Assembly: GCA_038823825.1 (NCBI GenBank)
Contig: JAWBCC010000001.1
Span: 270,001 to 302,000 of the forward strand
Direction of reading: 5' to 3'
Length of the DNA: 32,000 nucleotides
Source: Candidatus Hadarchaeales archaeon
GTDB lineage: Archaea > Hadarchaeota > Hadarchaeia > Hadarchaeales > Hadarchaeaceae
In this document: positions 26,065-27,471 of the stretch, in pieces
How the letters are laid out: every line of letters starts with the position of its first letter
How positions within the stretch are numbered: the first letter of the stretch is position 1
Made by a program: the position numbers and the translations under genes
The notes under the pieces: generated by a model
The model's input: only the letters and a program-made list of their open reading frames with translations
What the model was told of the DNA's origin: nothing
Databases searched by the model: none

Positions 26065-26337
26065 TTATCTCGCCTTCTTTATTCTATCTTCTGGTCTTCC
26101 TACGATTCTCCTTCCTTCTAATTTAATTTCCTTTCCGTCGGGAAGGGTTAAAAAGAAAACGGATGTCTCCTTTGGTATTTTTTTAGGCCCGTTCTTCGTC
26201 TCTAAAACAATCATTTTTTTGCTTTCATCGATAATCTTGCCTTCCAATCCAATCAGCGACCGACATGAGCTCGTCAGAATTTTTACCTTTAGACCAATGA
26301 GTTCGTGTTTTGCAATATCTTTTTCGGATATCTTCAT
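26065..26337 (-). CDS. rnp1: RNase P protein component 1 (Rpp29/Pop4 homologue)
   Basis: 90-aa ORF with [37 protein letters not shown]...IPKETSVFF...[18 protein letters not shown] (Sm-like fold pattern). It holds the conserved archaeal position between SUI1/L29 and S17. Confidence 0.88.
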
Positions 26338-26344
26338 TTCAAGA

Positions 26345-26647
26345 TCACTTCAAATCAATCATTTCAGACGAAAAACCAAGTTCCACAAGGATTTCCTTCA
26401 CTTTCTCCCTGTGATCTCCCTGCAATTCTACGTGGTTGTTCTTAACCGTTCCTCCACAAGCCAATCTAGACTTTAAAGTCTTTGCAATATCCTTCATGGA
26501 TTCTTGACTTACTCCTTCAACAATCGTAACGACTTTACCAAACTTTCTTTTGACAGAATATACCTGAATTCTCTGTTGCTCGCGAGAAATTTCCCGACAA
26601 ACACAGAGATCCTTCGGAAGACCACAGATCTTGCAGATCTCAGGCAG
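26345..26647 (-). CDS. Translation initiation factor aIF1 (SUI1 family), apparent CTG start
   Basis: Missing from the ORF track. Manual translation gives (L/M)[99 protein letters not shown] (100 codons). It matches archaeal SUI1 end to end, including the N-terminal Cys knuckle and the GGTVK/ELQGDHR core. GGAGGGGGA (26654-26662) lies 6 nt upstream of the CTG at 26647-26645. Confidence 0.85.
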
Positions 26648-26873
26648 TTTTGATCCCCCTCCCTTGTCGCTTCTCCCTTGCGATTGTCAATATTCTTGCA
26701 ATATCGCGCTTTATCTGTCTGATTTTCATAGGATTCTCAAGAGTACCACCAGCCTTGACAACTGCCCTGGCTCTTGCAAGTTCAGCTCTAAGCTCTCTAA
26801 GTTTCTCCTTCATTTCCTCCTCGCTCATCGCTCTTATTTCCTTCGCTTTCAGAGACGTCCACCTCCTCCACAA
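26640..26873 (-). CDS. rpl29: 50S ribosomal protein L29 (uL29)
   Basis: 77-aa ORF with [30 protein letters not shown]...[18 protein letters not shown]. The start is uncertain because it overlaps the S3 3' end by 77 nt. Confidence 0.9.
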
Positions 26874-27471
26874 CTTTAGGTCCTTCTATCCAAATTTTGT
26901 CCAGAATTGGAGCATCTGGTGGAAGTATCCATACCTTCACTCCTATTGTTCCGGGCTTAGTTAAAGCTTGTGCATAACCATAACTTACATATTTCTGAGC
27001 TAGATCTCCAGTCTTAACGAGATATCCTTGATAAAACCTGACTCGTTTCTTTCTTTCTCCGGCGATCTTCCCAGCAATCACGATCTCGGCCCCCTTGGCT
27101 CCTGCCTCCATTATCCTTCGCAACATCATCTGTCCGACTCTTCTAACGTTTATGCCTCGCTCAATAGCGAAGGCTATTCTTTTGGCCATTATGGGGGCGC
27201 AAAGCTCTGGATTTTTTATCTCAAGGACTTCTATCTGAGGTCTCTCAATTTTGAATCTTTTTTCCAATTCCTCTTCCAGTTGATGTATTTTTCCTCCTTT
27301 TTTTCCGATCACCATTCCCGGTCTTTCAACATAAAGAGCAACTCTCGTCCCAGTTGGAAGCCTTCTGATATCTACGCCAGCATATCCTGCTCTTCCGAGT
27401 GTTTTCTCCAAGAACGTCTCAAGCTCGACTTTTTTGATTCCCATTTCAACGAATTTATCTTTTACGGCCAT
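26797..27471 (-). CDS. rps3: 30S ribosomal protein S3 (uS3)
   Basis: 224-aa ORF with a KH domain: [22 protein letters not shown]. The C-terminal domain has [19 protein letters not shown], followed by an acidic tail. Confidence 0.95.

Follow-up and report, generated by a model that had tools for sequence, protein, structure and literature searches.

A conserved CTG at the start of the aIF1 gene in Hadarchaeota, and the case for self-limiting synthesis of an archaeal initiation factor

This study concerned the start of the gene for translation initiation factor aIF1 (SUI1) in a 32,000-nt stretch of DNA, here called the window, from a Candidatus Hadarchaeales archaeon (GenBank assembly GCA_038823825.1, contig JAWBCC010000001.1, positions 270,001 to 302,000). 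The gene very probably starts at a CUG, encoded by the CTG at 26645..26647 (minus strand), which occupies the position of Met1 in other archaeal aIF1 genes; among 64 Hadarchaeota genomes the homologous codon was CTG in 34, and outgroups had ATG or GTG. The best explanation for the whole of the data, to which we assign a probability of about 0.57, is that aIF1 is initiated at CUG and restrains its own synthesis through negative feedback at that codon.

The gene lies on the minus strand in an operon with the order S3, L29, aIF1, Rpp29, S17, L14, which is the same in related genomes. Ribosomal protein S3 (26797..27471) and the RNase P protein component Rpp29 (26065..26337), the ATG of which lies 7 nt beyond the aIF1 stop, were identified by Pfam, as was L29 (9.2e-20), the longest reading frame of which runs from a TTG at 26873 (26640..26873; start uncertain). 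From the CTG, the aIF1 coding sequence (26345..26647) comprises 100 codons and a TGA stop (26345-26347), and its translation matched Pfam SUI1 (PF01253) over residues 23-92 with a score of 71.6 bits (cut-off 25.5; E = 7.7e-20). A scan of the whole genome (1.05 Mb in 9 contigs, 96% complete, 46% G+C) scored it at 71.7 bits and returned it as the sole SUI1 gene. An archaeal zinc knuckle, CxxCGLP...CxC, sits directly behind the Met1 position and aligns with archaeal aIF1 proteins that begin M-P-E/D-I-C.

The original prediction had described a reading frame closed by a TGA 14 codons upstream, without ATG, GTG or TTG before codon 51, and with a CTG at the Met1 position that is preceded at 6 nt by a Shine-Dalgarno (SD) sequence and followed at 2 nt by the L29 stop; all of this was borne out. 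The closing TGA is at 26687-26689 and is followed by 13 sense codons and then by CTG CCT GAG ATC TGC (L-P-E-I-C), and no in-frame ATG, GTG or TTG was present in the window between that TGA and codon 51, an ATG at 26495-26497. A start at this Met51 would cost the protein its zinc knuckle and half of its SUI1 domain. The SD sequence GGGAGGGGGA (26654..26663) is located within the coding end of L29, with its GGAGG beginning 15 nt ahead of the C of the CTG and a spacer of 6 nt (tcaaaa), and the L29 stop TGA (26640..26642; CTGCCTGA) does not share the aIF1 frame in this genome. A startless run of about 63 codons has a chance of about 5% at this base composition, so the absence of a start is by itself unremarkable, and it is the comparative evidence that carries the case.

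The phylum was covered by 65 species genomes bearing aIF1, of which 64 were usable. The Met1 codon was CTG in 34 genomes, which belong to the window's family and represent 10 of its 12 genera, GTG in the 3 genomes of one early-branching genus (g12), and ATG in 21 genomes, all those of the five other families. Six genomes, of genera g9 and g10, carried an ATG or GTG two to three codons further upstream, and two (G011 and G061) had ATA without any canonical start. No canonical codon separated the upstream stop from the first cysteine in 27 of the CTG genomes, and in the remaining seven the only such codon was a GTG at Val4. Where L29 could be placed (33 of the CTG genomes), an in-frame stop lay two codons before the CTG in 31, one genome (G005) having tandem stops (TGA TAG CTG), and GGAGG was found at -15 in 28 of the 33. 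Ten different codons occupied the -1 position between stop and CTG. A stop zero to two codons upstream in nearly all genomes, an SD at a fixed distance and a conserved N-terminus together indicate that translation starts at the CTG, and the proposal that CTG is the start codon is strongly supported by its retention in 34 species-level genomes behind an SD at -15 and a variable -1 codon.

The same survey supplied the comparison of the L29-SUI1 junction among relatives that had been suggested as a check, and thereby disposed of an assembly error. That the CTG is a misread ATG has nothing in its favor beyond the prior rarity of CTG starts, and since 34 species-level genomes, assembled independently in different studies, share the codon, this reading is effectively refuted.

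Two changes of start within the family were seen at nucleotide level. In G011 (L130) and G061 (L100), ATA replaces an in-frame ATG of sister genomes (ATA AGC TCG and ATA ATC TCG, respectively). In genus g9 (L013, L098, L106, L110), the clearest of the upstream shifts, a 1-nt deletion has brought the ATG of the L29 A-TGA overlap into the aIF1 frame, so that the return to a canonical start (ATG AGC GCG CAG...) did not come about by a point change of the CTG.

Public gene calls disagreed on the product. A 50-aa protein starting from Met51 is given for 11 contigs (NCBI, JGI/IMG, ENA, Logan), and a 100-aa aIF1 beginning M-PEIC is recorded for the window gene in NCBI (5 contigs). The latter means that a CTG start has been tacitly accepted by an annotation pipeline, and the former that most gene callers shorten aIF1, a universal marker gene, in this case. 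Might the callers be right, with translation beginning at an internal canonical codon (Met51 here, the Val4 GTG in the seven relatives that have it), or might the gene be decaying? We regard this as very improbable. The pattern of substitution, namely a protein sequence that is kept while synonymous sites change abundantly, argues that codons 2-50 are translated, and the CxxC...CxC knuckle falls within them together with half of the SUI1 domain. The aIF1 frame of G013 has no canonical codon before codon 88, and a decaying or truncated gene would be the only SUI1 gene of a 96%-complete genome.

The position of the L29 stop bears on how ribosomes might reach the CTG. It was found at -6, -5 or +5 relative to that codon, and so within 6 nt of it in all 33 CTG genomes with a placeable L29. 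A stop within a few nucleotides of the start and an SD inside the upstream gene are the arrangement expected of termination-reinitiation, and the suggestion that aIF1 may be coupled to L29 in this way fits the geometry. No conserved RNA structure was found around the aIF1 start (-1.25 kcal/mol, no covariation).

The closeness of the two genes also raises the question of whether aIF1 might emerge fused to L29, through readthrough of the stop codon or frameshifting, and have no need of a start of its own. The 31 genomes whose L29 stop shares the aIF1 frame and precedes the CTG by two codons could be read in this way, as could the former annotation of the Sulfolobus solfataricus SUI1 gene as frameshifted, except that the -1 frameshift in that annotation was a sequencing error (PMC8211752). 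The L29 stop is out of frame in the window (+5) and lies at -5 in G001; G005 has tandem stops, and in eight genomes the stop is TAA. There is no frameshift geometry common to the clade, whereas the CTG is common to it, and neither a fixed frame relation nor a shared recoding signal, as programmed readthrough or frameshifting would call for, was found among these genomes. A fusion product is accordingly a slim prospect. A variant in which ribosomes shift frame from an out-of-frame ATG or GTG at -7 was rejected: the ATG is merely an A/G plus the TGA of the L29 stop, and the -7 codon is missing wherever that stop is TAA, and missing in the window.

Initiation at the CUG itself is then the preferred reading, and the question becomes why the codon has been kept. 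Synonymous sites in these genomes have changed freely. At fourfold degenerate sites of the 34 CTG genomes, none of 11 conserved columns was invariant at the third base (mean major-allele frequency 0.54), and the median pairwise identity, 0.35, was close to saturation. Leucine is also invariant at five other columns, and each of these draws on five to six codons, TTG among them; codon 1 is CTG in 34/34, a figure drawn from a set chosen by CTG itself. A fairer set is the 41 genomes of the family outside the GTG genus, and among these no point change of codon 1 to ATG, GTG or TTG was seen. The eight departures from CTG all involve a start shifted two to three codons upstream (ATG, GTG or ATA), most clearly the indel of g9. 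The 34 genomes share ancestry, and so represent one origin, not 34 trials.

A tree was built from S3, L29, Rpp29, S17 and L14 (622 columns), on which the start state was strongly clustered, requiring 7 changes compared with 22.7 when labels were shuffled. It is compatible with a single origin of the CTG and a few later changes; two ATG families are placed within the CTG clade, and the number of reversions is uncertain. By a heuristic calling of starts, those of the five neighboring genes are canonical in all genomes, drifting among ATG, GTG and TTG. Taken together, these comparisons of codons argue that the CTG at aIF1 is held by selection across the 34 species.

The main rival to a regulatory role bears directly on this point. 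It accepts CUG as the real start and holds that, with a perfect SD and L29 so tightly coupled, it hardly matters which codon is used, the CTG having arisen once and persisted as a frozen accident in a lineage that tolerates CUG. We consider it possible, at well short of even odds. It draws on the L29 stop lying no more than 6 nt from the CTG in 33/33 genomes, on the strong SD, and on sporadic CTG starts at other genes of the host genome and of G034. A neutral site should nevertheless drift, and codon 1 is frozen where synonymous sites are near saturation; start codons at other genes flip between the two closest genomes, and neighboring genes that are equally coupled keep canonical starts. The switches to ATA, and the recurrence of near-cognate starts on aIF1 in another phylum, are also poorly accommodated by an accident frozen once.

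That recurrence emerged from aIF1 loci outside Hadarchaeota. Two samples (66 + 78 loci) spanned Archaeoglobi, Methanomicrobia, Methanosarcina, Thermoplasmatota, Woesearchaeota, Nanoarchaeota, Altiarchaeales, Micrarchaeales and one member of Hodarchaeota, and a canonical start, nearly always ATG, was present just ahead of the zinc knuckle in about 143 of the 144. A CTG at the Met1 codon of one Thermoplasmatota locus (L154) was rejected as a further case: it is confined to a single species in which the ATG codon has been deleted, an in-frame GTG with an SD lies three codons upstream, and two members of the same class have ATG.

A different result was obtained from the phylum that holds the genome titled Candidatus Aenigmatarchaeota, the taxonomy of the outside genomes being that of record titles only. 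Nine of the 68 classifiable aIF1 loci in this sample lacked a canonical start, having instead CTG (five loci: L315, L325, L327, L330, L333), ATC (two: L344, L351) or ATA (two: L309, L355). Some are unambiguous, with a stop directly preceding the near-cognate codon, as in TAG-CTG of L327 and TAA-ATC of L344, and in L315 the L29 stop overlaps the aIF1 start as C-TGA (GCG CTG ACA). Nine more loci have CTG, ATC or ATA at the homologous codon and are ambiguous, since an in-frame canonical codon is also available to them, either within or next to the SD or at the neighboring valine codon. Judged from these alignments, two unrelated phyla have acquired near-cognate aIF1 starts independently, and with differing codons. 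For the broader statement that archaea have repeatedly and independently placed a near-cognate start (CUG, AUA, AUC, possibly AUU) on the aIF1 gene, the chances appear evenly balanced.

Whether CUG can serve as a start elsewhere in the genome was addressed with a crude set of 1037 genes, defined heuristically by codon usage and screened for coding signal upstream of the first canonical start; a table of GGAGGT-to-codon offsets was too noisy, and the codon-usage set was used instead. SD-like 5-mers peak 8-15 nt upstream of starts genome-wide. Hits with near-cognate starts from a screen for strong SD sequences were dismissed, as each has a canonical start 1-17 codons downstream. Two genes outside the window are probable cases. 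A GT4 glycosyltransferase gene (G000 C5:19028, minus strand, L047) reads AGGGGGATAGCG CTG AAG GTT CTG ATA GTT, with no canonical start in this gene upstream of the conserved KVLIVGDEFPPDIGG (M?-KVLIVGDEFPPDIGG); the start codon is GTG in the closest relative and ATG in others, and the distant genome G034, of another family, has TAA-CTG at the Met1 codon of its GT4 gene (L049). A dihydroorotase-like amidohydrolase gene (G000 C1:8546, minus strand, L072) has GGAAGGAGGGTGCCAAT CTG, the CTG standing behind GGAAGGAGGGTG, and its first canonical codon is at residue 55, directly ahead of the HxH motif; relatives have TTG or ATG at the CTG position.

L29 may be a third case. A CTG at 26850-26852 (minus strand) stands behind GGAGGAGGTGGACGTCT, where the closest relative (G003) starts with TTG; the alternatives are an in-frame TTG at 26871-26873, seven codons upstream, and an ATG at 26826-26828, eight codons downstream. 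CUG thus seems to be usable as a start in this lineage generally, with CTG the probable start at two or three other genes, and among the genes compared it is conserved only at aIF1, the start codons of the others flipping even between the two closest genomes. A non-canonical start, or else a frameshift, could also be present in an acetyl-CoA hydrolase/transferase-like gene of 625 codons (G000 C4, plus strand, ~36644, outside the window). Its upstream stop is followed by 40 startless codons that take in an apparently conserved N-terminus (…ALSLIKTGDHIFVGSACGEP), with an ATG in another frame just upstream. No tRNA dedicated to initiation at CUG was found in the host genome, where tRNA-Leu(CAG) is a standard elongator and the initiator tRNA has the usual features (A1:U72, anticodon CAU, and an anticodon stem with three G:C pairs).

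These features suggest how the start would operate. The SD 15 nt upstream would set the 30S subunit on the CUG, and that subunit would probably have just finished L29, the stop of which lies within 6 nt. Ordinary Met-tRNAi (anticodon CAU) would pair with CUG through a first-position mismatch, giving a protein that begins Met-Pro-Glu-Ile-Cys. When aIF1 is plentiful it would suppress initiation on its own CUG, and when it is scarce it would permit it, the outcome being a negative feedback loop that sets the start-codon stringency of the cell. Methionine as first residue, a low efficiency of the CUG and its sensitivity to the level of aIF1, and hence the feedback, are what we infer from the arrangement of the locus.

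As two papers summarize it, aIF1 of S. solfataricus discriminates against non-AUG initiation and destabilizes the complexes formed on an AUU mRNA (PMC6237735, PMC4705826). A suboptimal start on the mRNA of the factor itself is conserved (CTG in 34/34, ATA in two relatives, 9/68 in the second phylum), and the simplest explanation for a conserved weak codon on a factor that destabilizes non-AUG complexes would be negative feedback. That conservation of the CTG reflects autoregulation has, in our estimate, somewhat better than even odds. Feedback, which the original prediction put forward as an analogy, gains indirect support from strong purifying selection on the C of the CTG, from the switches to ATA and from the recurrence in a second phylum. 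Two observations count on the other side. Most archaea do well with ATG on aIF1, and the other CTG starts of this genome imply that CUG is perhaps fairly usable, which would weaken the premise of strong discrimination by aIF1.

No account of a near-cognate start or of autoregulation for archaeal aIF1 came up in full-text literature searches, in agreement with the supposition that such a start was undescribed; Monestier et al. (2018) mention the eIF1 loop merely as an analogy. If the proposed loop is real, the factor that polices start codons limits itself through its own poor start site in all three domains, which suggests homeostasis of stringency as a general design rule. In Hadarchaeota the loop would have been kept throughout the history of a family, and may accompany a tolerance of CUG starts across the proteome. 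There is also a practical consequence for annotation, as gene callers in these lineages either cut the aIF1 marker gene down to 50 aa or overlook it, and the apparent CUG starts at other genes matter for annotating uncultivated archaea in general.

IF3 and eIF1 are the textbook examples of fidelity factors that tune their own level through a poor start site, and the archaeal initiation machinery is a simplified, ancestor-like version of the eukaryotic one. Bacterial infC, which encodes IF3, has an AUU start at which translational autorepression has been shown experimentally, and the feature is widespread in bacteria. Like infC, the aIF1 gene places a fidelity factor behind a conserved near-cognate start of a kind that the factor itself probably discriminates against, and does so with an SD-led start in an operon with ribosomal protein genes. 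They differ in that the IF3 fold is unrelated to that of aIF1, in the codon (AUU versus CUG), and in that regulation is demonstrated for infC and deduced for aIF1; the near-cognate start also appears to be lineage-specific among the archaea sampled, unlike its wide distribution in bacteria.

Termination-reinitiation at overlapping or adjacent stop/start pairs is known in archaeal and bacterial operons, where, to our knowledge, the coupled pairs use ATG, GTG or TTG. The aIF1 junction resembles these in having the upstream stop within a few nucleotides of the start and the SD inside the end of the upstream coding region, and one Aenigmatarchaeota genome has C-TGA, a near-cognate form of the classic A-TGA. 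Coupling would account for the delivery of ribosomes, but not for a conserved C at position 1.

Two further counterparts are eukaryotic. In eIF1 genes the AUG stands in a conserved poor context that provides negative feedback (Ivanov et al. 2010, as cited in PMC6237735). The protein is a homologous member of the SUI1 family with the same proofreading role and a suboptimal start site of its own. The eukaryotic gene, which is read by scanning, has kept its AUG in a weakened context; at aIF1 the codon itself is near-cognate, placed by an SD and read without scanning. CUG is the most efficient non-AUG start in eukaryotes (PMC4705826), and in both domains it would be read by the e/aIF2-Met-tRNAi complex through a first-position mismatch under the control of e/aIF1. 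Eukaryotic CUG starts mostly give alternative isoforms or belong to uORFs, whereas aIF1, an essential single-copy gene, would have no start other than its CUG. With this conserved codon, archaea would offer a concrete and testable counterpart of the IF3 and eIF1 loops.
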